DNA of 32,412 bases from Nemertoderma westbladi (Eukaryota > Animalia > Xenacoelomorpha): assembly GCA_032718475.1 (NCBI GenBank), contig JAUCBJ010005879.1, positions 1-32,412 on the forward strand. The letters run 5' to 3'. A program made the translations under genes and the position numbers. The notes under the pieces are model-generated. The model had not been told where the DNA came from. It made no database searches and was given only the letters and a program-made list of their open reading frames with translations. How positions within the stretch are numbered: position 1 is the stretch's first letter; every line of letters starts with the position of its first letter. This document shows positions 2,735 to 31,626 of the stretch, piece by piece.

Positions 2735-2783
2735 TAATAATATGAAACCACTTATTCACCACTTAATATGAAAACACTTATTC

Positions 2784-3337: not shown

Positions 3338-3341
3338 GTAT

Positions 3342-8366: not shown

Positions 8367-9031
8367 AATATGTTACTAGCGACGACTGAACCAACTGGCA
8401 AGGGTTCCCAAACTCACTTGCAGTGGCCATACATACACTCACGTGTACCACGCACCAACAGCGACAGAAAGCTCATTGACCCAAACAGGTCCCAAAGACC
8501 AATCAGCTGAACATGGAGACAATAACATATAGTATCAAAAAAAAGGAACAGCTGATGGACAATGGAATACATCCAAGCCCCAAAGCCAACTGCCACTGAT
8601 CGCCCACACACAGAACACAGATCACACCACATGAAACCACAGATCACGCAAAGCCACCACCCCTACTGTGTACAGGACTAGCAGTACGGCAAAAGGCCGA
8701 CTAGACGGTTCCACGGCACCATGTTAATTCATGGTTCGCTAGACATGACCAACAATAGCAACAATAGCAACTAACAATTACTTTAACAAACTAGACAGTC
8801 AAAATTCAGACCCCCTCCCAAATATTCAACCCAGGGCTGAAGCGGTCTCAGACAACCCCAAAAAAACCACAGGTCAGTCAGACTTATCCAACCTGGATAT
8901 TGGTCAATCCCCACTAATAGCCCGAGCCAATTAACCATTATAGCTCGTGGGACAAGATATGTAGGGCTATAACTATACTGAAACAACTTTTCCACTATAG
9001 GTACAGTACTAATAGCGTACCTATAGTAGGC

Positions 9032-9498
9032 CTAACACCCAATGAAGTGGATAAATCTAACCTACAATTATTGAGAATTTCACAAAGACTTATAAGAAAT
9101 ATAATCAGCTCAGCGTCAACCCCTTACTCCATTGGCGGATAAATTATCAAGAATTATGATCAATGGATTAATTTGTGTTGGAGGCCGCCTCACTAACACT
9201 CCTATCTCCAGGGATACTATGTTCCCCATATTAATATTCAATCCCGAGATTCAAACCAAATTGATACAGGACGATCATTATCGACTCTATCACACCGGGA
9301 GAGAACACATATTAAGCGAGATCAGAATGCATTATTATCTAGTTCACCCTCGCGCGGCTCTCAACCAGATACTACGAAACTGTATACCTTACAAAAGGAT
9401 TTATAGCAAGCCGATGACGCAATTGGAAGCAGCGCTCCCGATGGAAAGAATTGATTGTTATCAACCCCCATTCAAACACACCAGCGTAGATCTCTTCG
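9032..9498 (+). pseudogene. pol: BEL/Pao element B: pol fragment (integrase zinc-finger region up to first catalytic Asp), 5'-truncated
   Basis: NGLICVGGRL...FPILI...HYRLYHTGREH...CIPY...LPMERI...PPFKHTSVDLF. The reading frame continues at 23314 (GPFEVKR...) once element A and one TSD copy are removed. Confidence 0.88.
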
Positions 9499-10151
9499 TG
9501 TAAGCGGATTCAATTCCATTTCATTTCATTACCCACCAGAAAATGGGATAGTGGCATTTTAGCAATATGTTGGAGATACGAGATTACCAATATTAATCTC
9601 GTATCATAACCAACATTTGGGGGGGGGGGGGGGGGGGGCAACACAAGCCCCGAAGCCACATAGAAAGGAAGGTTAAGAGGTCAAACCACCTCGGAGGGAA
9701 CACAGCTAGTAGAGGCTAGCAGCAGAGGGGAAACACTCCCAGAGAGTGCCAGGGTGACAAGTAGCATATTAGCCAATAGAGGGAAGGGAAGCATGTGATA
9801 GGGAGCAGGAAAGCATCCATTGGTTAGGAGGCCAAAGTAGAGTAGGAGGTGAAGCAATATTAGTGTATCAATCATATATTATGTCAGATTCTTGGATTGA
9901 TACATCAGTTGGTTATTCAGTTTAGTGCAGACCGGTAACAATTATTCACCATCATCGGCACTATCATACCGGTATCTATTATATCTGTATTTATGCCATA
10001 TTAATTGTGCTATCATTTTATAACATCAAGAAACAACATCAAACTCTTATCATTTTTCTCCAACGGCCTCAGCCAAGCTGTTAGCACCATCCCAGAGCAG
10101 AATGGTGACGTGTATAACAATTACCCAGTCGGGATCTCTGATCCCGTCACA
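9499..10151 (+). repeat. 5' LTR of element A (653 bp)
   Basis: TGTAAGC...CCCGTCACA; aligns with 22279-22915. Inr-like TCAGTT motifs occur at 9905 and 9917. Confidence 0.93.
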
Positions 10152-10207
10152 GTGAATAATTTATCAACTGCTACGACTGTGACTGCCAGAGACAGTAAAA
10201 AGAAAAG

Positions 10208-13200
10208 ATGAGCATAGGAGAGCCCCGATTATCTGAGGGAGAGAGAACGCTTCCACGGACCCCGGACGATATCAATCAAACGATCCGTGAGGCCGCGACG
10301 AGACGGAATCGGCCAGCGACGCCGGATTCGCCGACGAGGGACGATCCGGTAGCTGAAGCGGAGGGCGGCCGTCAACCACGAGGGAGGGACGAGTTGACGC
10401 ATGATGGCGGTCGGAGTACCAAAGTCGCCGGCCAGCCACAGGCCGAGGGCGATGGACGGCCCACCGGAACGGTGACGGTGGAGCCGCCGGTACGACAACG
10501 GACCAGGAGAGGTGGAGGAGTCGGTGAAGAGGACATCGGGACGAGTGATCAGCTACGACAGGCCTACAACGCCGCCAAGAAGCTGCTGAAGGAGGACAGA
10601 GAGGGAGGAAAGGTAGACCAGCCAAAGGCTTACACCAAAGGCTAGGTGAGTCGAATAAACATTTTCGATATTTAGTCCGTTTTGAACATGGAGAACTGGC
10701 GAGTGAGACAGCGAGGGGGGTCGCCACAGAACTGTTTGAACTGTGGCGATCCGGGGTTATGGAGCCTGAAGTAGTGTACGTAGGGCCATACTTAGTGGAT
10801 GCTAGGGGAATTAAGTTAGTGGGATGGGCGGATCCGCACGAGGGCGAACCTGAGGTTAACCCCGAGGATTCGGTCTCATCGGTTAGAGAGAACCTCAGAA
10901 AGCGGGGGAAAGTTAGTAGGACAGAGAGGCGACGGGAGTCCGTCGTGACCGATCAGTCCGCTACATCCTCCGCAAAAGCAAGAAGAGTGTTAGAGATAGA
11001 TCTGGCGTATGAACTAGACATAGTGGCGCTGGATCAGAAAGAGTTAGAGAGGCAGCTGGATGAGGGAACTGCGTTATTAGAGAAAGAGAGGGAGTTAGCG
11101 AGGGAGTGTAGAGAGAGGGCCGAGAGGGTGGCGAGGAATTGTAGAGAGCAAGAAGAGAGATAGACAAACGAGCGTAAAGAGCGAGAGGCGAAAGTAGAGA
11201 ATGAGCGTAAAGAGCGAGAAGCGAGGATAGAGAGAGAGGCAAATGAGCGTAGAGAGCGGGAGGCGAGGGAGGCAGAATTAGCGAATCAAAGTTTACGAGA
11301 GGATAGAGAGAGAGAGAGAGCGGGAAAGCATATGCGGGATGATATGCATGCCCGGTTAAGGGGGCTTATGCAATACCAGGCAAAGCAAAAGCGCCGATTA
11401 GAACTGGCATAGTTGGGATTATCTGAGAGTGAGGCCGGTTCAGGTAGTATTTATGAGGAGCCCGAAGTAATGGAAACGTTTGTTAATACCCCACTTATAG
11501 GCACCGGATGACAGACCCAGGACTGGTGTAGCCATACGGGCGGGGGGAGGGGGGGGGGGGGGGGTAATAATAATACTTTGGAAGACATTAATATTAATAG
11601 TACCGTATTGGACAACCCTAATCAAACTTTCGTTGCAGGAAATAATGTTTTACCCAGTAATAATAACTTTAAAATGTACAAAATAATCCAAATAATAATT
11701 TAAATCCAAATATACAAAGTAATACAAATAATCCTAACTTAAATATACAAAGTAATTCAAATAATTCTAATTTAAATATGCAGAATATTCTAAATAATAA
11801 TCCTGATTCAGAACAAAATAATTTAAATAATTTAGATGATAATATTGTTGGTAACGGTGCTATTAATACGAACGCAGGAAACATAGGTGGTCCGACCAGC
11901 GAGAGCATGCAAGTTAGTTCACAGGGAGTAGCGGGGGTGAGTCACCCCGACGGGAGCCTGCAAGGCCACGTAGTTAGGCAGGGAGCAACGGGGGTGAGTC
12001 ACCCCGACGGGAGCCTGCAAGGCCACGCAGTAGTAGAGGGAGAGGCGGGGGTGAATAGACCCAGCCACAGTAGAGACAACGCGTCGACTAGAGAGGGGCG
12101 TAGAAGCGAAGTAGGAGGTAGTGAAATAATAGGTGGCGAGTGGGACGCGGCACCCAACGACTGAGAATAGTAGGGGGATTATGAATATCCCCAGCAGTAT
12201 CCAACCGGCTAGAGAGAGAGAGAGGTTGGCGCCATGAGCGGGCGAGCGACAAGACGTCGAGCCCAGTCGGAAGACGGAAGAAGAACAGTGGAGTTTAACC
12301 GGGAGGTCGAAGAGAGATCTCATGAGCAGGAACGCTACACTGAAGAGAGAAGAAGTGAAGAGAATAGAAGAAGCGTTGCTACGAGCAACCGGAGAGCGAG
12401 GACGGACAGCAAACCATCGGTAGTGGAGATGGAGTGAGAGAGTCAGTGGGGTCGAACTCCGGGAGATTGCCGTCACCCCGGAGAGACGCAGCCTGGCGAG
12501 ATATATCATACGCTGGGAGAGGGGTACAGGATGTACCGGTATGAGGACGAGAACAGGAGAGGGGATTGAAGAGAAACTTCCCGACGGGATGTAGCTGCCG
12601 ATCGAGATTACGGTAGTCGTGGGGAGGACTTCTTGGAATATTTGACAAGATTAAACTTTGGTCCGGAAGGACACAGGCAGACTGCAGGACATACTGTAGG
12701 CCTTAATGCACATACTATAGGCCATGCTGGGAGATATAGTGTAGGCAATAGGGTAGCGCGAACAACGGGATTAGATCCAGAAGTACATACCAGTAGGTAG
12801 GCAGGAAGTGGATAGGCCTATACCGGTACCTGCACAGTAGTATGACTATAATATGCAGTGACATAACATATACCCAGGGGAGGGGGGAGTTATTGCAGAT
12901 AGGTGTATGGGCCCCAATATATTAACATCAACCCTAGTACCAAACATAACACTGGTGGGGGGGGGGGGGGCAGGGTGACATTCCCCCCATTACAATATCA
13001 ACAATACACTCAACCGGGAATAAGAACATCGATCCCCCTGGACCAGAACAGGTCATGCGACACGGAGATATGGAGGGGCCGTTACCCCCAATGATATATC
13101 CGACGCAGAAAAAATCAACAGGCCCGACGGCGGACCGCACCCAACAGGAGAGTCTGTACAGCATCCCTCGAACCCATTGAAAGCACAGGCGATGGGAATG

Positions 13201-13910
13201 GCAACACTTATCAATGCGCTCAAGACCAGGATCGAGCTACCACCAGTTGAGCCATTTATATTCGACGGAAGCAGACCGGAAGAATACCTGCAATTCCGAC
13301 GCATGTACAGCAACGAAATCTTAACTAAGAACCTGATGCAGGCGGAGTGCCTAAAATATTTACAGGTATACACAGGAGGCCCAGCGTACGACATCGTGAG
13401 GCAGTATCAGGGCATATGGACAGGGAATATGGACACCCTGCCAAGATCATCCGGCAGACCTTGAGGGGAATAACAGTGGGTGGCCTCCAGGATAACCCTG
13501 TTAGTATAAAGACCTTCGCGAATAAGGTCGAGAAGGCGTTAATCGTGCTGAAGACGCTAGACACGCCATACGAACTCAACGCATCGAATAACATCACCAC
13601 GATAGCGCAGGCAATGCCAATCTGGCTATGGAATAAATGGAGGAAGATCGCCTTCTCCACCCGGGGGAAGAAAGGTGTGGAACCGGGCCTAGAGGAAATG
13701 TCGAACTTCCTCAATTACGAAGCGGAGTTGATCATGGACCAAGTCTATAGCGAGGATAGTCTGGGGAGGGTGCCAAAGAGCGAATATAACAGGCCGAAAC
13801 CAGAACATAATGCGGCGAATGCATTACCAAAGCTTAGACAATCGCTGCCATACGCGGCGACGCAGGGGACTGCTAGTCCACATATAGCCGGGGGTAGGGC
13901 CACACCATAA
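10208..13910 (+). pseudogene. gag: BEL/Pao gag (DUF1759-like core), many stops and frameshifts
   Basis: ATG at 10208, an E/R-rich coiled coil (~11020-11340), an Asn-rich tract, then LPPVEPFIFDGSRPEEYLQF...LKYLQVYTGGPAYDIV...REYGHP...MPIWLWNKW...LEEMSNFLNYEAE (13177-13910), typical of BEL gag. Confidence 0.85.
11929..12065 (+). repeat. 60-bp in-frame tandem repeat inside gag (2 copies plus a partial third)
   Basis: GGGGTGAGTCACCCCGACGGGAGCCTGCAAGGCCACG recurs 60 bp apart (GVSHPDGSLQGH x2). Each copy contains the palindrome GGGGTGA-G-TCACCCC. Confidence 0.85.
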
Positions 13911-13922
13911 TAATGATACATA

Positions 13923-14560
13923 CAACATAATGATGATGGGGTGATGATATCTCCACCTACTGGCTCCAGAAGTCGAGGAAATCCTGCCAAGTACCTAACT
14001 GATCTAGACTTTGCTGATGACTTAGGAGTACTCTCAGAATCACTAGAGGGAGCCCAACGGCTCCTCAGCTCATTAGAACATGCTGCTTCTAGTGATGGTC
14101 TTTTGATTAACTCCAGAAAGACCAAAACTTTTGACAGTTAACTTTGAAAGTCCTCAGCAAGTCTCTGATCGGATGAGCATAAGCTCAAAAGATGGTATGC
14201 TTGAGCATATGGATGACTTCTGTTACCTGGGATCATGGATCCGGAAGTCAGGTGAGGACCTTCGAATATGTAAGGGAAAGGCATGGGCAGCCTTGAATAG
14301 GCTTTCCAGGATTTGGAAGTCAACGAGAATTAATCGGAAACTTAAGGTCCAATTATTTAGAGCAGCAGTAGTTCCAGTACTCTTCTATGGGAGTCCATGC
14401 TGGGCTCTAACTGCTGAGGACACCAAATCTCTGGATGGCACATTCACAAGAATGTTACGACGGGTTCATTGTGTCAAGTACAATGCACACAATGTATAAT
14501 CTTGTACTTTGGCAGCCTCATGGAGTGAATAAGCATGGTGGACAGCCCACGACTTTCTTG
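13923..14560 (+). mobile_element. Non-LTR retrotransposon (RTE-like) RT C-terminal fragment inside element A
   Basis: LTDLDFADDLGVLSE...GLLINSRKTK, DFCYLGSWI, KAWAALNRLSRIWKS, KVQLFRAAVVPVLFYGSPCWAL, TRMLRRV and LWQPHG...GGQP. Confidence 0.85.
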
Positions 14561-14639
14561 AGACGCATCTTAACCCTATCCATACCGGGGTACTTTAGAC
14601 GCTCAAACTACCGGGGGGGGGGGGGGGGGGGACTTTTGT

Positions 14640-17600
14640 GGACGTAAATGGACAGGACCTACTACCTGCCACTTCATGTGGCTTTAGACCCAATATTGGT
14701 CTGCTATTGGTCAATATTAGAAGGGTAAACTGCGGATGGTGGTTGACGCATCGGCTAAAACCAATGGCAAGAGCCTAAACGACTATCTGCTGGAGAGCCC
14801 CAATATTTACAACTCGGGGATAGAGGTCTTGTTGAGATTTAGGAATGGGAGGCACGCCTTCACATGCGACATCGAAGGCATGTTCAACCAAGTCCGTGTG
14901 ACGGAAGAGGACAGCGACAGCCAGCGCTTCCTATGGTACAACGGCGACGAGGAACCGTCGGCGATACCGATGTACAAAATGGTGGTGCGGAACATGGGGG
15001 CCAAGTCGTCCTCATTTACGACGACCATGGCTGTTAGAGATACGGTAGAGGGGAAAGAGGGAAAGTACAGTGCCAGAGCGATCGACATGATTCGACACGG
15101 CTTCTATGTAGACGATGGGATGGAATCTGGAAATACGGTTGAAGAATTACTGGAGACAGGGCGCGAGGTTCGCAACATCCTGAAAGGATCCGGATTTAAC
15201 CTGACTAAGTTCCAATCCAGCTCAGAGGAGTTCATGAGAGCCATAGAAGACAGGTGGCCAGAGTCGACCATGGACAACCCCACAACAGCCAAGGGACATG
15301 ACATGGCGAACAAGAGAGTGGAGTCTCAGCAGAAGGCGCTGGGGATTGTGTGGAACCCGGAGACTGACGAGTTCATGTGTCATACATAGCAAGGTTATAC
15401 GATCCCTTAGGCCTAGCATCCCCATTGTTAGTCAAGGGGAGCAGATACTAAAGAAAGTATATAAGTTAAAGGACGAGTGGGATACGGAGGTCCCAGAAGA
15501 AATAAGCAAACAGTGGAGTAAGTTGACGGGGAGTTTAGAACAGATGGGGACGTTCAGCATGCCACCCATGTATTTTCCGGACAGGGACATGACGGATCTG
15601 GACCTACACATGTTCTCCGATGCATCATTGGAAGCATATGGAGCGGCACTCTCTCTACCTGGTACAGCGAAAGGGGGCTCATATGCCCAGACTTGCATTC
15701 AGTAAAGCAAAGTCGACACCACCAGATTCAGCATCAGTCCTGAAACTCGAGTTGACAGCTGCGAGATTAGGAGTAAGGGCCACAGCCTACTTGATGGACA
15801 CTATACCCAACATAGTGGAGACACACTACTGGACGGACTCCATGGTTGTGCTGGGCTGGCTGCATAACGAGAAGACGAGATACCCTATATTCGTCGCAAA
15901 TAGGGTAGATGAGATAAGGGCGACAACTGACTTGGAAAGGTGGCACTACTGCCCTACATGCGACAACCCAGCAGACTTGTTATCGAGGGGCGTGGCACGC
16001 CACACTTTCTCAAAGAAGGAAGTGTTGTGGCAGCACGGGCCACACTTCCTGAATTATAGATCGGCCTGGCCACCAATGAAGAAGGTGGACCCGGGCTCAG
16101 AGGAAAGAGCACCAGAAGAAGAGGGAGAAGATTCAGAAGGAGAAGAGATATATAGTCAGATGCTGAGGGAGGTCAAAGAGGTGCCACCGAAATCAGAAAA
16201 GCCATGCGACAACCCGATGGATAGGTTACTCAGCTACAGCTCCAGCTAGTATAAGACCAAGAAGTTGGTAGTGTACTGGAGGGCCTACGGGGATTTCCTC
16301 AAGAGAGTTGGCAAGGACGCCCAGAGGAAAACAAACATCGATCTGGAGGGAGCGGCCAAGGCCGTAATACGGTACGAGCAGAGAAAGAACTACGCCGACG
16401 AAGTGGATCGAGTTAGCAAGCAAAAACATCTTCGTCGGGACAGCGAGCTCAACACGCTGTCACCACAACTAAATGATGATGGGATTCTGGTGATGAACTC
16501 CAGAGTGTGAACAACAACAGCCCAATCATCCCACCAAAACCCGTAATCATTCCCAACAAATCGCCGGTAGTCCACCAGATCATTTGGGACTCCCACAAGT
16601 CGATATTACATGGAGGCACCAACCAGACCCACACAGAGATACGGAGGACTTTCTGGATCACGCAGCTAAGGAAGAAGGTGAAGGCGGTAGTGGGGCAGTG
16701 CCAGACCTGCCGACGGACAAGAAAGGAGGGGGCCGTACAGGAGATGGCGCCATTACCGGCCAGTAGGGTGAGACAGCACGACCTGCCATTCCCACACTGC
16801 GGTGTAGACATGTTCGGGCTGATTAAGGGGGGTGGTACACCATTTTCGGACAACTCTTCGATTTATCACTCTCAGCATTTCAAAATTTTTTGATTTTGGC
16901 TATAATTTGGAATATAGGTGCCTAAGATGCTATTCTACATGATAGGTTAGAAAAAAATTTTTTTTCGCTATTTAATATTAGTTAATACCAGTTAACAATA
17001 AAAAAAACTTGGTTGCTCTTAAAACCCTAAGGCTTTTACAGTTTTGAATCTAATCACGTGAAAGTTTTTTTATATGATAGATCAAAGATGGGGCAACATA
17101 ACTATCAGGCGAAATTTTGTGAAAATAATTCTGCGCCGCTAGGTGGCGCTGCAAATTTAGGCTAAATTTTTAGGTTTGTTATAAATAGTATTAAATTTTA
17201 TTAACAAATAATTTCGAAAAGTTGTCTGATACTTTTATGCAGGGTGGCTATCTAGACACCCACTGGAAGTTTCAGACTAATTGCTCAAAAATTGTAGAAG
17301 TTGTAGGGTTTTGAAGTTGACAATTTCATAAAAAAAATATTTGGAGATAATCTACCTTTCATTATACATAGTAATAGTAATTTCAATAGGAATCCCTAAA
17401 TAGAAATTGGTATAACTGGAAAACTAAATGAGCTATTAAATAGCGGTTTTCAGATTAGGAAACACCATTCAATGGTGCATTATAGTAGACCATAAAAAAA
17501 TTCGACATATTTTTGACCAAAATGGTGCACCCCCCCCCCCCCCCCCCCACCTTAAGATCAAGGTGATGCGACACACGGAGAAACGCTACGGCATCATCTT

Positions 17601-18441
17601 CGTATGCAACAACACGAGGGAGGTAGGAATAGAACTCGCACAGGATGCTACGGCATCGGCATTCATTAATGCCTTAGAGAGATTTAGAGACCGCAAAGGT
17701 GGAACAATCGCGGTGATTTATTCAGACAATGGGACCAACTTCGTGGGAGCGGAGAACGAGTTGGCAGAGGCCTTTGACATCCTAGAGGGAGACGATGTCA
17801 GGGCGGCAATGAGGAGGTGGCAGGTGAAATGGGAAAGGAGGACGCCGTATGTGCCACATACTTTAGGATGTGTCGAGAGGCTTGTGGGTAGTTCTAAATG
17901 TCTGATGACGAAATTGATGAACACCCACATGGTCACAGAGGACATACTAAGAACAGTGCTAGCTAAGTGTGAGGGAATCATTAATAGCAGACCGCTATAC
18001 CCGGAGAATGACGACCCGGAATCACTAGACGTGCTAACACCGGGTCACTTTCTGATGGAAAGGCTGGCGACCATCGACATGCGGGGTGTAGACCCAGATG
18101 ACATACACTCCCGACAGAGTTGGAAGGTCGCCAAGGCGATAAGCACCGAGTATTGGAGACGGTGGAGAAGGTGGGTAGAGGAATACCTCCCCACATTACA
18201 CAGGAGGAGTAAGTGGAGAAACACCACTAGGGAGTTGAAGAAGGGTGACTTGGTGATCGTCACTGACGACACAATCATCAATAACCATTGGAGGCTAGCG
18301 AGAGTGGTAGACACTTACCCCAACGAGGACGGAAGAGTCCGATCGGTGGAAGTGCGGATTGGAGGCAAGATAGGAGCAAAGGACAGGAAGATCTACAGGA
18401 GGGCTGTAGGGAAGTGCTGCCTATTAGAAGGGGCACCATAG
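14640..18441 (+). pseudogene. pol: BEL/Pao pol of element A: RT, RNase H, integrase and DUF5641-like tail; frameshifted and split by a MITE
   Basis: YYLPLHV...GKLRMVVDASAK, CDIEGMFNQV, FYVDD, YDPLGLASP, LHMFSDASLEAYGA, KLELTAA, YWTDSMVVLGW, NPADLLSRG, HKSILHGG...CQTC, CGVDMFG, YSDNGTNFVGA, GCVERLV, INSRPL, YLPTLHRRSKW, GRVRSVEVR. Confidence 0.95.
16827..17551. mobile_element. TTAA-flanked non-autonomous DNA transposon (Kolobok-like MITE, 725 bp)
   Basis: TTAA at 16823-16826 and 17552-17555; TIRs GGGGGGTGGTACACCATTTT / AAAATGGTGCACCCCC...CACC. Removing it restores the frame GLIKIKVMRHTEKRYGIIF. Purine-start termini with a TTAA TSD favour Kolobok over piggyBac (CCY start). Confidence 0.85.
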
Positions 18442-18597
18442 AGTTTAGTCGTCCAAGTGTTGGACTTAGGGGTGGGATTGAGGGCGAGACGCCCTTCCCA
18501 CACAAATATATAAAAAAAAATAATAAAAATAAAAGAAGTGAAATAAAGAAAGGGTTAGAAAGAGAAAGTAATAGTAGATAGTATGTAGTAGTAAGTA

Positions 18598-18962
18598 AGT
18601 AGGCAGATAGAGGTATAGGGAGTGTGGTATATAGGCATACCACGGGAGTAAGAGGGCACATAGTACCATTAGTAGGTAGATAGAGGCATAGGGAGTGTGG
18701 TATATAAGCATACCACGGGAGTAAGACGGTACATAGTACCGTTAGTAGGTAGTTAGAGGCATAGGGAGTGTGGTATATAGGCATACCACGGGAGTAAGAG
18801 GGTACATAGTACCGTTAGTAGGTAGTTAGAGGTATAGGGAGTGTGGTATATAGGCATACCACGGGAGTAAGAGGGTACATAGTACCGTTAGTAGGTAGTT
18901 AGAAGTATAGGGGGTGTGGTATATAAACATACCACAGGAGTAAGAGTGTACATAGTACCGTT
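18598..18962 (+). repeat. 73-bp tandem repeat x5 with two hairpins per unit
   Basis: GGGAGTGTGG (last copy GGGGGTGTGG) recurs at 18618, 18691, 18764, 18837 and 18910. Stems are GTGGTAT/ATACCAC and GGTAC/GTACC. Confidence 0.92.
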
Positions 18963-19140
18963 AGAGTTGGTGTTAGTAGAGTTAGTAGAGTTAGTAGAGT
19001 TAGTAGATTTAGAGGGTTAGTAGAGTTAGTAGAGTTAGTAGAGTTAGAGGGTTAGTAGAGTTAGAGGGTTAGTAGAGTTAGTAGAGTTAGCATAGTTAGT
19101 ATAGTTAGTAGAGTCAGCAGAGTTAGTAGAGTTAGTAGTA
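18963..19140 (+). repeat. 9-bp microsatellite (AGAGTTAGT)n, degenerate
   Basis: Directly visible; it abuts the accessory ORF. Confidence 0.92.
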
Positions 19141-19154
19141 AGAGAGTGGAGAGT

Positions 19155-21383
19155 ATGATATGTAAATATATCATAAGAGTAGTGGTGATAGGGACACGGG
19201 ACACCGTTGCAGACAACGCGATCCTCGAGCATTTCCACGACGTAGTGAAAGTAGACGAGGCAAAGTTCGGGATACCGAAGTATCCGAGGGAACCACCAAG
19301 AAAGGACTGGAGGAGGTTCGTAGAGTCCTTGAACAGGGGAGGATACATGGTCCTAGACGACGAAGGGACTGTGGAGGATGAAGAGGGTTTGAGAAGAGGG
19401 TCGGCGGGGTCGGCCAGAACCATACTACTGCATTTGGCTGCGCCAAATGGAGACATATTCCTATTCGATCTAGGAACGTATCGGAAGAAGAGCGGGCCGA
19501 AATTAAACCGGTTGCCATGGGCGGTGCAGAACCTAGTAAGGGAGAAGTCAACGATGAAGGTGGGATTGGCGATCCGCGACGATGCGGAGATGATCGTCAG
19601 ACCGGAGACCCCCAACCTCCTGGACATGCAAGCAGTCTACATGGCCATGACAGGGCCAGACGGGTTGGGATTGGTAGAGAAGACAGGACATTGCGGAGCA
19701 GTGGCGATGGGCCAGCTCATGGGGCTCATCTGCCACAAGCCGATGAAATGGGGTAAATTCAGGGAGGTGTATGGAGCGGAGCTGGCGAACTCGCTGAAGT
19801 GGGGAGTGAGGCCAGGGAAACAGGAGGTGTATCAGTTCTGGAGAGGAGCGATAAAGATATATCAGAAGCGATATATCCTACAGGAGGATTGGATAATGAT
19901 AGGTTTGCTAAACCTATTCATGGCCGTGGTTATCGGAAGAGAGCCAACGTCGTTTCTGCTAGCAGGATCACCCCTGAACTACAGAAGAACCTTCAAGGTG
20001 CACTTCGAAGGTCTGGCAGACCACCCGGGGCTGAAGGGCGAGTCAGTATACTACAACTGCCGGCATCTAGTAGACAGGGAGGTGGATACACCATATCAGA
20101 GGTGGGAGAAGCTGGAGGCGGATAGACTGGAGGAGAAGCGACTGGAAGAAGTCACCAGATGAGAAAGGAGGGAGGCAGATGAAAGAGAGGCGGAAGCTAG
20201 AGGAGAGGACTACGGATTTGAGGCCCAGAACTTGGACGAGCTACGGTGGGGATCAGGGTTCTTGGGCAAGTTTCTGGGGGAGGAGCTAGGATGGATGGAA
20301 GAATCGCCGAAACAGTCGACATCAGGATTGCAAGCGATGCCCATGCCAGCGGGCTCTGAGGGCGATTTCGCGAGGAAGAGACCGAGAGAACTGGAAGGAT
20401 GGCAAGTTACGGGCAAAAGCCAAGGTGGGAAGGGACACAGTGGGCCTGCCGGGATACCGGGTCTGGATCCACTCCCAGCAGGGGATGAGGATGACGACGA
20501 GTTCGGGGAGATGCCGCCCATCGAGAGGATCGGCCACTCAGACATGGACTGGGTTGGCGAGAGGTTGGTGACGGCCAGTGGGGCGAGGGCCTTCTGGGAT
20601 AAACCCGGCAAGCGGACCTGGGTGCACGAGGAGCCGGCGATGGATTTCGCGGGGAGCACCATCAGGTTGGGTGAGCAACCGGGAACGGCACCACGGGTAG
20701 TGTTTGGAGAGACGATGCCGAGGCGAGACAAGGACGTAGACATTGACAGAGACGTTAACGTCCAGAAGTTTGCTTACCCACGGCTCCATAGACCTAGGAG
20801 ACCGCTTGGGGCAAAAGATAACTTGGGGCGGGATGTGTTGATGCACGGCTGCGATTACTGCGGGAGGCTTACTCACCAGGAAAAGAGCTGTTTGTATCGA
20901 TTCCAGAAGGGGACGAGTTGCCTCTACTGCCGCGAGTCGAGTCATAGGATGGGGGCGTGTCCGAGGTTGCACAACCGCTGCTCTAAGTGTAACTTTAGAG
21001 GGCACTACGGGCGCAAGTGCGACTGGATGGACGACGAGGAGAAGTTAAAGATCTTCGAGGAGTGGGCCGACGTCGGCATTATGACGTGACAGAGAATGAA
21101 GGCCCAGGAGTTCCGGTGGGGTTTGTTCAACATCAATCAGGAGGCCCATCTGGAAATTATTAAGAGGAGACTTCCGTTTACATGCCAAGAGGTAGCGACA
21201 GCGGCATCATATGTTGGGGTCATCAACACGAAGAGGTATTTGGATAGATGGGCGCCGGAGAACAGAGGAGAGTTTAGAGATTTCCTGGCGGAGCACGTGC
21301 CGCGAACCATGAAGATGATCTTGTGGGACACTACTAGGGGGAAGCAGGAGGGGCATTCGGAAGGGCCACCTCCAAAGCGTTAG
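19155..21383 (+). pseudogene. Element A accessory ORF (~740 codons, two in-frame TGA): DEDDy 3'-5' exonuclease-like domain plus 3 CCHC zinc knuckles
   Basis: ORFs 19146-20162, 20232-21089 and 21096-21383 share one frame. ExoI MVLDDEG (19356), ILLHLAAPNGDIFLFDL, ExoII LPWAVQNLVREKSTMKVGLAIRDD (19581), LLDMQ, ExoIII QKRYILQED (19872). Knuckles CDYCGRLTHQEKSC, CLYCRESSHRMGAC, CSKCNFRGHYGRKC (20850-21020). Confidence 0.8.
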
Positions 21384-22270
21384 CGAGAGCTAATAACACC
21401 AGCGCCCAAAGAATCGACCATGGGAATTAGTAAGGCAGTAACGGCGAGAATGAGGAGTCTCAAAGAGGACAAGCCAGAGGGAAGGAAGCGACCCAGACAG
21501 GACGACGATAGAGGGAAGGAACTGAGATGGTTCAAGAAGACGGGATGAGCGAACTAAGACTCGGAGGGGGAGATGTGGGGATGCCTGGAAGGCACCACAT
21601 GTGAAGTAATACGAACTCCTAAGTGCAAATTTAATAAAGTGCAATTAGTATGTACGTATGTAATAATCAATAGAATATAATTAGAATCAATATAATCAAA
21701 GTATGTATTATAGTCATATAACCTTTTCCAACTAGCTACTGGGACTGGGGACCAATTGACTATGGTAGGAGGACGGGACAGTAGACGAATCACACTTCTT
21801 GAGTGCAACGGCACAAAAGGGGAGGGTGAGGCTCATCAGGAGTGAGTAGAGTAAAATAAGTGTGGGTTGAGTATAGGAACATGGGGGAGGTACGGAGAGG
21901 AGGTGTTGACGTGCGCAGAATGTAGATGGGTGCAATTCAAAGGTGGGAAGCAAGCAGTAAGGGAGAGAGTAAGGGACGATAGGGTCCATAGGATATAGAG
22001 TAGAGTGAAGTTAGAGTGAGTTCAGAGTGAGGTGGTATAAAATTGTGTGAAAGGAGTCCATAATTGTCTCGAACAGAGATGTCAGATGTCTTGGTGCAAC
22101 ATAGGTTGCGATTGCACCAAGAAGGGGTAGCAATATCATACCCAGGGGGGACGGCCTGGAAAGCCAACCCCGAGAAAAGAACTCCACCCCACACCCGATA
22201 GTAGATCGGGTTCCAGCGAAATTGAAGCGCACTTGAGGTTGATGCTATCTTTTCACTGGGAAGATAGCAT

Positions 22271-22278
22271 GGGGGGAG
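22271..22278 (+). promoter_or_regulatory. Polypurine tract of element A
   Basis: GGGGGGAG lies immediately before the TG of the 3' LTR. Confidence 0.85.
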
Positions 22279-23308
22279 TGTAAGCAGATTCAATTCCACT
22301 TCATTAACCACAAGAAAATGGGATAGTGGCATTTTAGGAATATGTTGGAGATACGAGATTACCAATATTAATCTCGTATCATAACCAACATTTGGGGGGG
22401 GGGGCAACATAAGCCCCGAAGCCACATAGAAAGGAAGGTTAGAGGTCAAACCACCTCGGAGGGAACACAGCTAGTAGAGGCTAGCAGCAGAGGGAAACAC
22501 TCCCAGAGAGTGCCAGGGTGACAAGTAGCATATTAGCCAATAGAGGGGAGGGAAGCACGTGATAGGGAGCAGGAAAGCATCCATTGGGTAGGAGGCCAAG
22601 GTAGAGTAGGAGGTGAAGCAATATTAGTGTATCAATCATATATTATGTCAGATTCTTGGATTGGTACATCAGTTGGTTATTCAGTTTAGTGCAGACCGGT
22701 AACAATTATTCACCGTCATCGGCACTATCATACCGGTATCTATTATATCTGTATTTTTGCCGTATTAATTGTGCTATCATTTTATAACATCAAGAAACAA
22801 CATCAAACTCTTATCATTTTTCTCCAACGGCCTCAGCCAAGCTGTTAGCACCATCCCAGAGCAGAATGGTGACGTGTATAACAATTACCCAGTCGGGATC
22901 TCTGATCCCGTCACAGTGAATAATTTATCAACTGCTACGACTGTAACTGCCAGAGACAGTAAAAAGAAAAGATGAGCATAGGAGAGCCCCGATTATCTGA
23001 GGGAGAGAGAACGCTTCCGCGGACCCCGGACGATATCAATCAAACGATCCGTGAGGCCGCGACGAGACGGAATCGGCCAGCGACGCCGGATTCGCCGACG
23101 AGGGACGATCCGGTAGCTGAAGCGGAGGGCGGCCGTCAACCACGAGGGAGGGACGAGTTGACGCATGATGGCGGTCGGAGTACCAAAGTCGCCGGCCAGC
23201 CACAGGCCGAGGGCGATGGACGGCCTCGGCCAAGCTGTTAGCACCATCCCAAGGCAGAATGGTGATGCGTATAACAATTACCCGGTTGGGATCTCTGATC
23301 CTGTCACA
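22279..23308 (+). repeat. Compound 3' LTR of element A: full LTR (22279-22915), copy of leader/gag start (22916-23225), second LTR 3' end (23220-23308)
   Basis: 22916-23225 matches the sequence after the 5' LTR (10152-10461) with 2 substitutions. It joins through ACGGCC to an LTR end that is followed by the TSD. Confidence 0.9.
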
Positions 23309-23313
23309 CTTCG

Positions 23314-24266
23314 GGCCCTTTGAAGTTAAGCGTGCCCGCTCGATAGTGAAACGGTGGTGCGTCATGTTTGTTTGCATGACTTTTCGAGCAGTCTATCTGG
23401 ATATGGTTAACAACATGTCGATGAAAAGCTTTATCCTTTGACTCTGGAGACAGATCGGTAGATTTGGCACTAGCCGGACTATAAGATCCAACCAGGGTAC
23501 TAATTTCGTAGGTGCCAACAATGAAATCTCCAAATTCATTATGGATTGGAATGATCACCAGCTCGAAGAACACCTTAAAGTGTCGGCATCCATATGGACA
23601 TTCAATGCCGCCGACGCGCCCTGGTGGGGCGGAAGTTGGGAACGGTTGATTAAAAGTACAAAGGTCTCGTTTCATCACAAATTCCCATGTAAGGCTTATT
23701 TAAATGACAAACTGCTCAGAACACTTTTGGAGGAGATATCAAGTTACTTGAACGATAGACCCCTCTTACCTATTTCGTCGAGTCCACAAGCCATGGAACC
23801 CCTAACACCGTCCCATTTCCTACTAAGAAAACCAGTAACAATGCTGCCCAAATCCGATCCAAAGGATGGCGATGAACTGTTGAGACGCACATGGCAAATG
23901 ATGCAACTACTATCTCGGCGATTCGCAACACACTTCGAAAGCTACTATTTACCTTCAGTCCAGCTCAGGACCAAATGGTTTCCAAAGAAGGAAAATGTAT
24001 CAGTTGGCGATATAGTACTTTTAGTGGATCAGGACAAACCTAGAAAGACCTGGGAAACGGGCTGTATAACAGAAATTTATACGGGTAACAATAACTTGGT
24101 ACGCTCAGTAGAACTGACTATTTGGAGAGATACACCCAAACCCAAAGTACACTATTTAAATTGACCAATCGGATGCCTTTGTTTACTAGAATTGGCAACG
24201 GAACGTTCCGGTAACCACAGGCAACAAAGGTTTAGACTAAGCAATCTGACATACAAACTGGAGTAA
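23314..24266 (+). pseudogene. pol: BEL/Pao element B integrase core and C-terminus
   Basis: GPFEVKR...KRWCVMFVCMTFRAVYLDMV, SNQGTNFVGA, APWWGGSWERLIKSTK, LNDRPL, LTPSHFL, YLPSVQLRTKW, VGDIVLL, LVRSVEL, *PIGCLCLLE. Confidence 0.93.
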
Positions 24267-25327
24267 CGTCTTATAAAGGGTTACGATTGAGTGTGTAATT
24301 ATTTATTAGCCATTTTATACAGCGTAGGTATTAGTATTAGACTATGGTGCGCATGTAGCAACAAAACCTACTTATGTTAATTATACGTTGTATATGATAG
24401 CAACATATGCGACAATTTAATTTAACAGTAAATTATTTGACTTAAAACTTAAATAATTCAAAATAAATGACTAATTACTAACGACAATACTCAATCGTTG
24501 AGCGGATTTATGTGACGTTACGAGCATAGAAATATGTGATTTTCAAAAAAAAAATTGTTTAATTTATATTAAACATAAATCATTAAACACAAACTAATAA
24601 CCACAATTAAATTTAATATCGCCATAAATGCCTAAATTACTACTTAAAATACTACTTAAATTACCAAATGACCAAACTATTACAGTAGTTATTTGTGTGA
24701 AATAAGTGTGAGAAGTGAGCATTCTAATCTCTATTTACAAACATATCACGGAATAATTAATTAAATAAAAACGAAACAACGTGTTTCCCAGGAAACATAG
24801 ATAGAACTCGTACAACTGTGAATGCAACCGCTTAGTACAGCTTGTATGGGAAAAGCAAAATTGTTATCATGGATACACCAAACGGTGAATTCTGGTAAAT
24901 GTTTAAAGTTAAGCGTTTTTGAACTGTATTTTGACCGTATATTGAACAAAAGTGCACAAATAAGCACCAAATTAAGCTAAATAGTGTAAAAAACTGAGAA
25001 ATAGTGTGAAATTTTAAGGTTTACACAATTGTCCAACCCTTCATAGATGCTAGAGTTATAGTTGATCAGTGATGGCTCCGGGCCAGTCCCCTGTCTCCCT
25101 GGCTTGATGAGAGTTTAGCCTTTAGCCACGATATTTCGGTACCGCTGGTAGTTGCAAACTCGATTCTTGCCACTAGGGATTGACCAGGGACTGCGTCACA
25201 GCGTGTCTCGGCGCCTTTGGGGAGGTAACGCTTGCCTAACCCCTATATACATTCTTCTACTCAAACTCGCACATGTCTCGACACACAAAGACACTCAAGC
25301 GACGTTCTGGGGAACAGCACGCAGAGA

Positions 25328-28300
25328 TGATGGATATGATGACTGCTGATTTCACTGGCGATTCCACCGAGCTCGCTCAAAGCATGGAACTGCGTATGGA
25401 TCCTTCAGGGAACTACATCGAACCGCCGATGAACCCCGAACAGCACAACATCGAACAACAATATCGTGAGTTCATTCTCAAATATACCGAGCGCGATGGA
25501 AGTTATAACAGCTTCCTCACCACTGGTCACCCCATGGACTTAAGGGACATCAATGACCAGCATGTTCAAACTACACGTTGAACGGCAACGTAGTAACGAG
25601 ACCTGAACACAACACAACTATCAGATTCGTGTTGGTATCGCGGACGATGACACCGAGAATCCTTCTCACCTCTCCTGCTTCGAGGAATATGTCACCTTTC
25701 TCCGCGAAACGTATCTAAAGGTCGCAAGTCAACATGATTTATAAACTCTGTACCTTAAGGGTGTTCATCCTAACCCGGCTAAGGAGATCAAACGACTCTA
25801 TCACAGCATGATGTACCTTACTGAGGGTCGCCCACTCCCAGTCCTCCCTGATGCTTTCTACGACATGGAGGAATACAGTAAGTCAGGTGTAAAGTCTCCA
25901 CCCCCGTGCAAAACTGACTTTCGGCTCTGGTACTTGTGTCGTCAATGCCCATATCACAACCAACAGGTCTCCACTACACCTGTGAATCACCCCCATCAAC
26001 GATGCTCCCGCCATAGCTTCATCAAGTATATGCACGGTGGGTTTGAGGAGAATCAATTTAACGTCGATGAGAAACGGTTACGTAACTTGCAGAGGTTGCG
26101 TAAACCCATGATCCGTTTCCCTGAATTTTCTCCCGGCCCAATGTTGCCTATATGGTGAAACACATGATGCTCTCACCGACCGACCCCCGCTTCGAAGCCA
26201 TGTATCTGTATTTCCCAGACCTCGTCATGGATGAACAGATAGCTCCCCATTACCAAGAAAAATGCCGACCCCTCTTCAACCTTCCATGGTCGGTATAGGT
26301 CACGGCAGTTTGCTGCAGCACGAGGAATCCATGTGGACCTCCCCTCTCACCTCTGCCGGGACCTCCACGGTTAATCGTAACTACTTTGGTTACCGAGTTC
26401 CTTGGCACCCTTCGAAACTCTATCGGTGTAGATGACCCTATTAAACTCTCCGGCAAGCTCAATGTCGTCCGTCAGATGAAACTACCAAATTCGAATCAGA
26501 AGTCCACCTCCTACAAGAGGAAATCGAATGAGGAAAGGCTATCTCCCTCACGGATGCTCTTAGAGAAAGCCAACATCTTCGCGAAGAAGAGGAATGGACA
26601 GAGCGTGAATGTTTAACTGACGAGCGCGAGCTAGCTTCTTTGGTCCAACCCGCGGTCCAGACTCTTATGGAAGGGTTCCAAAGTAAAGCGCAGGCTCACC
26701 CGTCCAGGTCTGTAAAGCGTTTCGGTGTCACTTACAGTCAAACCCGAACGATACCTTTCGACACTGACATCTCTAACCCCAACCTAGTTGCAGACGCTCT
26801 GATGTTGGAAACCCACATTGTAGAGCCCCTTCTCGACGAAACAGATGAGTGGATCATCGCTCCCCTTGGTCAAACTGACCAAATCAAGTCGCTAATCTGG
26901 GACAAAAACCTATAAAGATGACCTCTCCATCCACCGTTCTATGGAATTCAGGACCATCCGGATTTTGTTCTACTCGGTCAACATTATGTGATGAAACCCG
27001 AGGATCCCGCCTGCAGTATGGATTTTCTACCCCTAGTTAATCCCCTCGATGTGACGGAAATCGAACCACTGCAGATACACCTAGATTACATAATCAAACT
27101 GAACGCCTTTCGCAAACCCTTCAACATACAAACCATCGAGGATAAACCCGCGCCCCTATGGAATCTCGCTAATTTTATTAGTGATCGATTGATTCACTGG
27201 AACATTGACGTACAGTTCCGGGAAGATAAACTCTCTACCACATTGAAAGGAAAATCTGTCGTAGAGAATGTCCAAAGCTACGAATCGGTAGTTATCGCCC
27301 GAGGCTCCATTGGATCCCTCGATAGCTTATGGACACCGGTTGAAGTGGATGAAACTGTCGTGTATCTCGAGTTTAACAACACTCTTGAGATTATCCTATT
27401 ATTATTATTATAATTATTATTATGATGCTATACGATAACGAAGGTTCCGTATCGAACGATGAACTAGGTACTACCCGATTAATACATATCCGTTGTTTTA
27501 ACCAGAGTCACCCATGTATTCACGCGATCCTCCCGTAGCGCTGATGCATCCTTCACCCCTCCGTCCTTCCAGGAAATGGTACCTCGGCATGGACAGTTCA
27601 AGAAGTCCTACAGATACGTTATTGAAACCAAGCGTCACCCTACGCCCAGCATTGAGCCTTCAATGTTGCCCTAACCCGTTCTCGACCTGTTGTTCAATGA
27701 GAGGATTTGTAAACTCGGTTCAGCGATATATCCCGACTTGTATAAGGACTTTGACTCCTTATTAGACATCCCTTACCCTTTTGCAGACACACAAATGATC
27801 CTCCCGTGGGCCCAGGAATGTGGTTTCTTCCGCGCCATTTACGAACGTGTAGGCAACGAAATGCGTAGAGCTGAACATACTGGCATCGGACACATTTCGT
27901 TCCATGAACTCGGTTGGGATTTCAAGGAAGGTAGGTATAACCGTTATTTAAACCTATATGGTGATAATTATTCGCGTTATTACATCAATGGTCCTCTGAC
28001 CACCCCCGGTGCTGTTTATTCTAACATTAGTGTCCCTCTCCGGCCTTCTCCCACCATTTACATAATTTACGAGAACTCTGCCGTATCAGGTTGGCTAGCC
28101 GATACTTGTAGTAGGACTCTGAGGTCCCACCCCTTACTTCTCGGCACCCAGCTTGCCAAAGTTAAACGTGAAGGGAAATTCCAAAGTTTCGAATGTTTTC
28201 AAAGGTTCTTATTCCCCTTCTTCGGCATCGACAGCCAATTCCGTGACCCCGCTCTGAAAGGACAGGTAAATAAGCATTTATCTGCTTTTGAGGACCTAAA

Positions 28301-29233
28301 CCAAAAGGGTTTCGCCATATTCAAGGATGTGTGCATCAAAAACCTACCTTCTACTATTCTAGAGCGCCCCATCCTCAAGTCTGGATACTCAGTCTCAATG
28401 GGCCAAACCTCAGATAAGCAGATAGCTTCCTATTTAAATGACTATGCGGTGGACAACGTTTTAGAATCCAAACCCGTCCATCCCACCTCTGAATTAGACG
28501 ATGACGGCGAGTTTATTATACCGTGGCACCTTTGACCACAACCATTAACGAGAGTTGCCTTTCGTTCAGCCGTGCCACAAGGTCGGAAGCGCTGCATTCA
28601 ATGTGGCTCCCGTGCGCATAAAGCACTACCTACTGGCGAGATTTGCCAAACTTATTCACAATGTTCTGTTCTGAGCTACCCCCTCATTGTCTGTATTGTA
28701 GATTGATTAATGATCACACGTTCTTTAACTGTTCGCAATTCTCGGAACAGTGCGATAAATGTCCATTAAAGGGACATTACCCGAGCTCCTGCCCCTTTGA
28801 CTTGACACAACGGGACGGCGAAACATCCCTCCTAAAGTATATTAAATTGTGGGAGCATTCTGCGGATTTACACCAAATCACACGCCTCCATTATGAGTCT
28901 TCCCACTCATATTGCGGAGTCTTTGCCGTCAACCCTTACACCTTTGTGATTGAAGCGCAACAATCCCACCTTCCTGACTACCAAATACTGTTAACAGTCT
29001 CTGAGCTCACCAACGTTCAATATGTGTGCACGTTCCTTTGCCGTATGAACCCCGGTGATGTGACAACCTATAACCTTATCGAATTTATTCGAAAAGACTC
29101 CAACCTTGGTTACGAGTTCGTCGCCACCAATCCTGAGTTATTACAAACTTTGGATCGCGTTACGTACCTCCGTCATACCGCACGCCTTGCGGAAGAGACA
29201 GAGGTATATTTAGAGGTAGAGGAGGTGTCATGA
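25328..29233 (+). pseudogene. Element B accessory ORF (~1300 codons, broken): unknown N-terminus, DEDDy exonuclease-like domain, 3 zinc knuckles; homologous to the element A accessory ORF
   Basis: ExoI LYDNEG (27434), TRLIHI, ExoII LP*PVLDLLFNERICKLGSAIYPDL (27735), FADTQ, ExoIII-position YIIYEN (28059). CIQCGSRAH, CLYCRLINDHTFFNC and CDKCPLKGHYPSSC lie at 28593-28792, then WEHSADLHQIT. The start position is uncertain. Confidence 0.72.
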
Positions 29234-29336: not shown

Positions 29337-30708
29337 ATGGAGGGATGTGAAGCGAGAGAGTGGGCGGAAGAGAATGGATTTGATGTGGAAGACTTAGAGG
29401 CAATGGGATGAAACAAGGGTCCCAGCAAGTATCGGTATGGAGATGGAGAGGCGCGGACGGTGAGATGTCCGGAGGACAACCCGGAGGAGTGTCCGATGGA
29501 GTGTCAGGAGGACAATAGTCCGGAGGAGTGTCCGGAGGAGTGTCCGGAAGAGACGCAGGTCCGGTTGAGTGGCATACCGACAAGGGGGAGGTCGAGTAAG
29601 AAGACAGGATGGAAAGGGATAGGATTACTATTGTACCTTCTGTTTTGTCTGTTCTTTCACTTTCTTTTCATTCTGCCGCCGGGAGACAACAAGGTGGGAG
29701 GTGGCATTTTGATGCCAAGAGACGAGGAAGTTAAGAAGGCGGAGGAGAGGAAGGAGGGTATCCTTTATCTAATCCATATCATTCATTTGCTATGTGTGGA
29801 CCAAAGGCGGGAGAAATTGTCGTTTGTCCACCTAAGATTGTTGAACCCGATGCATTTGAACATACGCTGGAAGAGCTGACTCAGTCAACCCGCGAAAAGA
29901 AAGAAGCTCTTAGCCTATACAGAGTCTATAAGGCTTTCGAGGAGGGTGAGATGGAAGAATGGGGCGGAAGACTCGCGAGCCTACCTTACCATTGGACGTC
30001 ACATGATCAGACTTCAGCTAAGGAGATGACACCAAAAATTTTCGAAAGTATAAACTTTGCCCAAAATGTTTAATCGTATCACATATGGTGAATTTGATCG
30101 TTTCCGAACAGAAAAGCGGAACAAGGGAGCTTGGTTAACCGTCGCATGGGCGTATCGAGCCGCATTCTATCACAAACGTATACGAGCGAGCGTATTCGAG
30201 GAAGAGGAGATCCTAGAGGCGACCAACATACCAGCTACTCCGGGTGCGCCGTCTGCACGTCACCCTCGGGAGGACGGACAGAATAGGATTATAAGGGTTC
30301 AGAAAGTGGAGCCAACAACTAAAGAAAACTATAAATATTGAAGAACGAAGGGGATATGAACCGACTATTCGAGTTACTCGGGATATGGTGTCACTTCCCA
30401 GAGAACCGCAAGGAGGATTAGGACACATACCAGCTGATCAAAAGGGGGCGCAAGTTTCTCTTGAGTCTGCGTCGTCCACTTCCCGCGCATTCCCAGACGT
30501 TTTACCAACGGTAGACACAACCGGTCGATCACGAGGAGTCGGTCGAGGATTTGGGATGCCTAATAGACGAGCATGTGAGGAAATGGTCGCACCATCTCCC
30601 AACGTCCAAGGTAAACTAGTGACTCGCCCCACAAGTCCCATACCGCGAGCAAAGTCACCTGTACACAGTTTTCCAGGACGCGGCAGGGCTCGATCCACCA
30701 AGCGGTAA
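29337..30708 (+). pseudogene. Degenerate orphan coding region of unknown product
   Basis: A chain of abutting plus-strand ORFs (29460, 29792, 30057, 30385) with coding-like composition and an ECPE repeat (GAGTGTCCGGAG). No recognised domain. Confidence 0.35.
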
Positions 30709-30724
30709 AAGGGAGGGCAAGGGT

Positions 30725-31330
30725 GGACGGAAGACTCGTGAGCCTTTCTTTTGTATTGTTTATTTTATGTATTGTTTATGTAAATTGTATTGTTTATGTA
30801 ATTTGTTATTGCCCCAAATTTATGTAATTTGTATTGTTCCGATTTTATGAAATTCAGAAAGTTTTATATTTAGAAGGAATTTATATTTGAAAGGTTTATA
30901 TTTTATATTTGAGATGCCTAAAGAGTTTATATTGTTCTAAACTTATGCAGTTTATATTGTTCTAAACTTATGCAGTTTATATTTATATTTAGTAAGAATT
31001 ATATTTAGAAAGATTTACATTTAGAAAGTGCTATATTTGTAGTCATTCCAAACTTACGCAATTTATTGTTTCGAATATTATGCAATTTATATTTTATAAA
31101 GAAGCAGTATTTGTATTCGCAGTAAATAGAAGGCAAGAGCAGACGGAAACTTGTGAGCCTTTCTTGTGATTTATTTGAAATTATTCCAAACTTATGCAAT
31201 TTGTTTTATATTTAAGTAGCATTTGTATTTGTGATTGTTTGAATTTATGCAATATTTGAGATGCAATAGATTTATTTGGTGAATTTAATTTAGATATATA
31301 TTGTACTTACTTAATAAAGCCTTAAATACG
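30725..31330. repeat. AT-rich degenerate repeats
   Basis: TGTATTGTTTATGTAA variants (30750-30840), GTTTATATTGTTCTAAACTTATGCA x2 (~30924-30975), and GACGGAA..CT.GTGAGCCTTTCTT at ~30726 and ~31142. Confidence 0.7.
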
Positions 31331-31626
31331 TAAAGTTTGAATTTGTAATTATTTGTATCGAATTATTATGTAAAGGTGTTATTGTTGAGATTTAATTTGT
31401 AAATATGTAAGTACGTCCCAAGTATTTCATAATTTGATTTAGTATTGGTGAAAACCGTATATTTTATGCTCGATAATATCCTGTTTTCATGGAGCGGTAT
31501 AGAATTATATTCTCATAAATGCCGTGGATTTTCAAAATTTTATTTTGTTCGAATTAACTTTCTATAAAGATTACATTAAGTCCTCATTTGCATTTACCAT
31601 ATCTATTTGTATAACATTGTTCAAGT

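Follow-up and report, generated by a model that had tools for sequence, protein, structure and literature searches.

The window analysed here is a 32,412-nt stretch of Nemertoderma westbladi DNA (the whole of contig JAUCBJ010005879.1, forward strand), in which one BEL element (the inner element) is nested within the integrase of a second (the outer element). Downstream of its integrase the inner element carries an additional long reading frame, ORF3. Its features, in order, are:

9494..9498 (+), left copy of the 5-bp target-site duplication, CTTCG, from the sequence
9499..10151 (+), 5' LTR, TG...CA, from direct repeats
9940..9949 (+), decamer within the LTR, complementary to the 10 nt that directly follow the LTR; a candidate self-primer (also at 22704 in the 3' LTR)
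10152..10161 (+), primer-binding position GTGAATAATT, with no TGG tRNA site, from the sequence
13024..13461 (+), decayed gag fragment with a weak DUF1759 match (Pfam E=0.077, below cut-off)
14721..16246 (+), decayed fragments of reverse transcriptase (RVT_1 E=3e-5, below cut-off) and Pao-type Peptidase_A17, the RNase H region (PF05380, 27.6 bits, cut-off 22.3)
16480..18441 (+), integrase (H2C2, core and DUF5641, by Pfam), split by an insert at about 16823-17551
18595..19150 (+), spacer ahead of ORF3, made up of tandem repeat families with units of 73 nt and 9 nt
19155..21383 (+), ORF3, a frame of 742 codons interrupted by TGA at codon 336 (20160-20162) and codon 645 (21087-21089)
22271..22278 (+), polypurine tract GGGGGGAG, from the sequence; the 3' LTR begins next, at 22279
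22279..22915 (+), 3' LTR, from direct repeats
22916..23308 (+), partial tandem duplication, a 5' internal segment (302/304 identical) joined to an LTR end
23309..23313 (+), right copy of the target-site duplication, CTTCG, from the sequence

The inner element thus shows the marks of an LTR retrotransposon (TG...CA LTRs, a short target-site duplication and a polypurine tract), and its LTR pair aligns over 652 columns with 623 matches and 13 mismatches. The CTTCG duplication brackets 9499-23308, and because the partial tandem duplication comes after the 3' LTR, we place the outer end of the element at 23308 and its start at 9499. The terminal segment (22916-23308) duplicates the first 304 internal bases, passes through a short shared stretch at the joint and finishes with an LTR end (23220-23308, 91% identical), a structure as expected of a deleted tandem dimer. 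The empty-site joint 9493→23309 was found in three of four read runs. The element is decayed and has received two further insertions, both very high-copy, at 13926-14573 and 16823-17551; one is a LINE-like reverse transcriptase fragment (by eye) and the other a short element with G/C-run ends. The integrase joint 16822→17552, in which the second insert is absent, was present in all four runs.

Because the Pfam order is RVT_1 (below cut-off), Peptidase_A17, H2C2 and DUF5641, we assign the inner element to BEL/Pao, as the sequence-only reading of this DNA had done. The Pao-specific Peptidase_A17 and DUF5641 both exceed their Pfam cut-offs (E=4e-23 for DUF5641 at the integrase end, 18441), and the order is RT-RH-IN. 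The integrase stop at 18441 and the polypurine tract at 22271, also taken from that reading, both stand, with the long frame between them and inside the LTRs. The scanned fragments showed neither gag Cys-His boxes nor a protease, and approximately 13926-14573 is filled by an insertion. The pairing of the 10 nt after the LTR with the LTR decamer, a match that arises in 106 of 20,000 mononucleotide shuffles, is compatible with self-priming.

ORF3 contains no frame change and 3 stops including the terminal one, compared to 15-44 in the other five frames, in agreement with the earlier description of a frame of about 740 codons with only two TGA interruptions. It is open already from 19065, and the start codon assignment at 19155 is thus provisional. 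Its parts are:

19290..19940 (+), putative WRN/EXD2-like DEDD(y) exonuclease domain: D68 (19356), E70 (19362), D143 (19581), Y240 (19872) and E244 (19884)
20163..20834 (+), acidic Gly/Pro/Ser-rich linker, likely disordered to judge by its composition (residues 337-460: 23% D/E, 31% G/P/S)
20850..21020 (+), triplet of zinc knuckles of the form CX2CX4HX4C, at residues 566-579, 589-602 and 609-622
21021..21380 (+), C-terminal region conserved with the outer ORF (K..E.WAD......F.IN; 29% identity in alignment; best non-self six-frame match in the window at 28838)

The motifs in the exonuclease region read D68-x-E70, ILLHLAA, IFLFDL, LP..KVGLAIRDD (K135, D143), D157-M-Q and Q..Y240-x3-E244. The series reported from the letters alone (DxE, LLxLA...FLFDL, LP...KVGxxIxxD, DxQ, Q..YxxxE/D and three knuckles) was located in ORF3 in full; at ExoIII, which that reading had given as E/D, the tyrosine and acid are present (Y240, E244), and the fourth acid is Glu rather than Asp. 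The knuckles match CX2CX4HX4C exactly, although the corresponding Pfam match falls below cut-off (zf-CCHC_4, E=0.009).

BEL/Pao elements (Belpaoviridae) such as roo, Cer7 and Tas reportedly carry env in a third ORF, and they share superfamily and gene slot with the Nemertoderma element. ORF3 contains no membrane anchor and no N-x-S/T glycosylation site, and its peak hydropathy (1.59) lies within the ExoIII helix; because it lacks anchor and glycosylation sites, we rejected env as its identity. In contrast to the env of roo, Cer7 and Tas, it is predicted to be an intracellular nucleic-acid-binding protein. Between ORF3 and the polypurine tract lies a cysteine-rich decayed frame with no Pfam match (21546-22270); before it come a second purine run and a TGT (about 21565-21580). 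This frame is possibly a fourth ORF or a remnant of an older LTR.

Blind searches returned no relative of the N-terminal domain. In a Pfam scan of ORF3 at curated cut-offs, PF01612, the family proposed for checking by the sequence-only reading, was unmatched, and the N-terminal exonuclease part had no match of any kind. PDB sequences yielded two hydrogenase matches (E>0.5, chance) and no relative. Relatives were likewise absent from a 5.8-billion protein set searched with ORF3 and with the knuckle alignment, from 1.84 billion representatives searched with ORF3 residues 1-335, and from metagenome contigs searched with ORF3. Viral contigs searched with the integrase alignment gave nothing, and the best plasmid match (E=0.6, a hypothetical protein) was treated as chance. 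Structure prediction with Foldseek, also suggested earlier, was uninformative when unguided: the single-sequence AlphaFold model had a pLDDT of 36 and no fold match.

We then compared the domain with profiles of the PF01612 family. PF01612 proteins were collected from bacterial genomes, and of 40 regions 12 WRN/EXD2-like and 13 short RNase D-like ones were aligned, while the other 15, extracted on the wrong strand or in the wrong frame, were set aside. A further 65 longer relatives, one of them an insect EXD2, were gathered as well, and a WRN/EXD2-like HMM of 65 sequences was built. This HMM scored the ORF3 domain at 12.1 bits, compared to a maximum of 4.0 in 2000 shuffles. Across all six frames of the window it found two domains only, at 19419-19595 in ORF3 (E=0.0049) and at 27669-27740 in the outer ORF (E=0.75, not significant taken alone), and across 80 other BEL loci it found nothing above 0.9 bits. 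An alignment of the inner and outer proteins matched by hhalign with a probability of 86.5% and a score of 41.3 (maximum 24.6 in 150 column shuffles), and hhalign with the 12-sequence profile gave a colinear 127-column match reaching through ExoIII (E=5.7e-4). The strongest local profile match is about 50 columns long, and in the global hhalign alignment ExoI is shifted out of register. In contrast, the short RNase D-like/bacterial RNase D profile was not matched by ORF3 (hhalign P=0.52, no HMM match), and we rejected membership of that group. These profile results back the DnaQ/DEDDy-like homology of WRN-exo/EXD2 type proposed from the letters alone: where that reading had allowed for finding no DnaQ fold in profile or structure searches, the WRN/EXD2-like profile matches ORF3.

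MAFFT alignment places D68/E70 at ExoI, K135/G137/D143 at ExoII and Y240 at ExoIII in family-conserved columns, with E244 occupying the catalytic Asp position of ExoIII. ORF3 has the D-x-E of ExoI and the K-x-G-x5-D of ExoII, the latter found in both elements, and its ExoII looks like a WRN-type motif rather than an Rrp6-type one. At ExoIII, ORF3 reads Y240-x3-E244 against the strict Y-x3-D, and because Glu replaces Asp we class it as a DEDDy-like variant and not as a strict member; ExoIII is the weakest of the putative motif assignments. Like WRN-exo, EXD2, Nibbler (Mut-7) and Egalitarian (PF01612), ORF3 has the family's motif order, an ExoII of the form K-x-G-x-x-I-x-x-D and a significant profile match; unlike them, it lies below Pfam detection, shares about 20% identity and has, besides the ExoIII Glu, an extra stretch of about 30 residues ahead of ExoIII. 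An AlphaFold model guided by the family alignment reached a pLDDT of 69.9 and a pTM of 0.70 (75-89 around the three motifs, about 50 in an insertion), and its structural matches were EXD2, Egalitarian, TbRND, Nibbler, WRN and Rrp6 as well as giant-virus exonucleases, with TM-scores to PDB entries of only 0.34-0.52. Because the DEDDy alignment steered the fold, these matches are partly circular and the model shows fold compatibility only. The profile similarity is significant from the ExoI flank to ExoII, and we infer that the N-terminal domain very probably has a DnaQ (RNase H-like) fold.

The strongest support for the exonuclease reading is a homologous exonuclease-plus-knuckle ORF in the outer element, the features of which are:

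9105..9498 (+), 5' half of the outer integrase (H2C2, Pfam E=4.8e-4, below cut-off)
23314..24164 (+), 3' half of the outer integrase (DUF5641, E=9e-16)
25273..29233 (+), decayed downstream ORF region with several stops and frame changes, from homologous motifs
Within that region (+), ExoI D-N-E-G at about 27434, ExoII K-x7-D at 27711-27737, Y-x3-E, and zinc knuckles at 28593-28800

The inner and outer integrases are 29% identical. In a tblastn search of the window, ORF3 matched 28688-28972 (E=1.6e-6), downstream of the outer integrase. Among 64,724 six-frame positions, the best non-self match of the ExoI window was at 27419 (D-N-E-G), with a score of 27 that a chance site equals, while the best non-self matches of the ExoII and post-knuckle windows were at 27663 and 28838, placing ExoI, ExoII and the post-knuckle segment in order. 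Similarity between the two ORFs was highest in the knuckles, their best conserved part (z=15 for the knuckle region); the X-joined exonuclease region gave z=5.3 in glocal alignment and only z=2.5 in local alignment, and BLASTP between the two exonuclease regions gave no significant match. ExoIII, which is Y-x3-E in the outer ORF also, was not significant alone between the elements (ranks 37 and 48; together with three other windows, ranks 8-57), and because its windows are not top-ranked its assignment rests on the family alignments.

The 3' LTR of the outer element was not found in the window, where a different high-copy repeat with short ORFs lacking Pfam matches begins near 29390 and runs to the end (29390-32412), hiding the 3' end of the element. 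We therefore assign the outer ORF to the outer element from its position and from level depth (in run X1, summed depths of 1.5-3.1 thousand over the outer integrase and 0.7-3.6 thousand over the outer ORF region). At its N-terminal side the outer ORF region includes a long part (25273-27410) that is absent from the inner ORF3 and has no Pfam match, and a Cys/His cluster, CRQCPYH...RCSRH, lies near 25935-26010.

Elsewhere in the window we observed an unbroken 487-codon tyrosine-recombinase ORF at 4694-6154 (-) with DUF3504 and Phage_integrase matches, which is Crypton-like; a Gypsy-like integrase fragment (H2C2, rve) at 7065-7860, between the arms of a 69-nt inverted repeat (6488-6556 and 8764-8832); and a 30-nt tandem array at 2664-3433 that is open in three frames and has inverted repeats on both sides.

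Many variant copies of the inner family clearly carry ORF3. Over ORF3, contig depth in run X1 summed to 8-24 thousand, which is of the same order as the 11-33 thousand over pol bins free of interruption, and up to 53 contigs cover a single ORF3 site; these sums do not give copy numbers, and ORF3 itself served to find the runs. The sequence-only reading had named a one-off insertion, absent from other copies of the family, as what would tell against it; reads show ORF3 in many copies, and we rejected a one-off insertion on the depth over many copies together with the homologous outer ORF. Among the best-supported differences listed (2864 further ones exist), 12 fall in ORF3. At 9 of them this copy departs from nearly all others, and all 9 are non-synonymous, which fits private decay of this copy. 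At the remaining 3, where the copies split, all 3 are synonymous (p of about 0.04 against a transition expectation of 0.33), a pattern that may reflect constraint on ORF3, if weakly.

No exonuclease was detected in any of the 80 other BEL loci, of which only 28 had at least 2.5 kb downstream. Nineteen long ORFs that lie beyond other BEL integrases were scanned; they belonged to the gag-pol of neighbouring elements, to other transposons, to host genes or to no known kind, with no exonuclease among them. ORFs of 249-389 codons follow soon after four of these integrases (L180:11249-12415, L135:4298-5044, L159:1823-2734 and L166:11435-12226); that of L180 has a weak PHD finger and the other three have no Pfam match. 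They are possible accessory genes of other kinds.

LTR elements with a DEDDy ORF3 are already on record, while in the literature accessible to us no earlier report was found of a BEL/Pao host or of a fusion to knuckles. The rotifer clades Juno, Vesta and Athena are presumably not BEL/Pao, whereas the Nemertoderma host element is. Bdelloid rotifer Juno and Vesta LTR retrotransposons and Athena/Terminon elements carry a DEDDy-exonuclease ORF3 according to the accessible text of PMC5408684, a rotifer precedent that the sequence-only reading had named, and DEDDy ORF3 is counted among known LTR-element accessory domains (PMC6338049, in the portion available). Like the rotifer ORF3s, that of Nemertoderma has a DnaQ-like DEDDy domain, sits in the env slot as a separate ORF after pol and inside the LTRs, and lacks transmembrane segments; in the rotifers, as here, the function is putative, and Rodriguez et al. 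describe no clear link to copy number (PMC5408684, as far as its accessible text goes). Compared by description only, the rotifer motif is DEED and ours D-E-D-E, and three CCHC knuckles are fused in the Nemertoderma protein where the available rotifer text gives knuckles for gag and pol only (PMC5408684). Dada DNA transposons are also transposon-borne carriers of a DEDDy exonuclease, embedded there in a DDE transposase (PMC3706591, in the text available). A literature search whose scope excluded Repbase, most subscription journals and supplements returned no BEL/Pao exonuclease and no knuckle-fused case.

A close parallel in architecture is the RNase D of Trypanosoma brucei (TbRND), in which an exonuclease is joined to four CCHC fingers that hold the RNA, a combination termed very unusual in the available text of its report (PMC7797062). 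As in ORF3, an N-terminal 3'-5' exonuclease is followed by a C-terminal CCHC array, and TbRND structures are among the fold matches; TbRND, however, is a cellular enzyme that trims guide RNAs in mitochondria and has four fingers and a linker of 28 residues (PMC7797062, same portion), whereas ORF3 is a transposon gene with three knuckles and a linker of about 300 residues. The likeness lies in the architecture and need not reflect orthology.

Because its architecture parallels that of TbRND, ORF3 would likely trim RNA 3' ends. The overall proposal, which we consider about evenly balanced, is that ORF3 is a family-wide BEL/Pao accessory gene, broken in this copy, whose WRN/EXD2-type exonuclease, long linker and three CCHC knuckles would bind single-stranded RNA, trim its 3' end and probably blunt small-RNA silencing. 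The protein would be expressed from a separate subgenomic message; the knuckles would grip single-stranded RNA, and the DnaQ-fold domain with its four acids would trim the 3' end as TbRND does. Catalytic activity in intact copies is somewhat probable, and so is RNA rather than DNA as the substrate, gripped by the knuckles like that of TbRND; that silencing RNAs or cleaved element RNA ends are the target is a more tentative suggestion. Unrelated elements have captured DEDDy domains repeatedly (PMC5408684, PMC3706591 and PMC6431247, each in its accessible part), and since these elements replicate differently, the captures suggest a role common to elements over one specific to priming. Counter-silencing, through trimming of host small RNAs, is hence the role that we would prefer for ORF3. 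That an exonuclease-knuckle ORF is retained in two families whose integrases are 29% identical speaks for a function kept over a long time and against a mere passenger.

The same enzyme might instead serve the replication cycle of the element, trimming the 3' flap of a self-primer or RNA/cDNA ends, or proofreading cDNA, which we regard as unlikely. The missing TGG tRNA site and the pairing of the post-LTR 10 nt with 9940-9949 (106/20,000 shuffles) fit such a role; CCHC knuckles resemble nucleocapsid fingers, and WRN-type domains act on DNA (PMC5408684, within its available text). Yet ORF3 is separate from pol, the exonuclease was not detected in the 80 other BEL loci (28 with at least 2.5 kb downstream), and the LTR and primer site of the outer element lie outside the window. 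The change of the ExoIII Asp to Glu in both elements raises the alternative that the domain is a pseudo-nuclease with weak catalysis or none, which would act in the manner of Egalitarian or EXD1 as an RNA-binding adaptor to localise, package or protect element RNA. Egalitarian is among the top structural matches, its catalytic residues are described as dispensable for RNA binding (PMC13186709, in the part available), and the knuckles are better conserved between the two elements than any other part of the ORF. However, two families with integrases only 29% identical have both preserved the D-x-E of ExoI and the Asp of ExoII, and the fourth position is still acidic, so an adaptor of this kind appears improbable. 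Finally, the uniformly negative blind searches would suit an N-terminal domain outside the DnaQ fold, with a motif resemblance due to chance or to a small convergent segment; the shuffle and decoy controls and the conservation of the same motifs in order in the second element make this very unlikely.

The knuckle-bearing version of a retroelement DEDDy ORF3 described here predicts a substrate sharply, its unbroken N-terminal domain is assayable as is, and it adds a further LTR superfamily and a new architecture to those in which captured DEDD exonucleases are known. It is conceivable, if doubtful, that an old BEL/Pao lineage encodes a TbRND-like RNA trimmer, an active exonuclease steered by its CCHC array, that destroys host piRNA/siRNA guides or completes the primer which a tRNA-independent element makes for itself. 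If counter-silencing, our preferred role, is true, an animal retrotransposon would encode an enzymatic counter to small-RNA silencing, which would be of wide interest.
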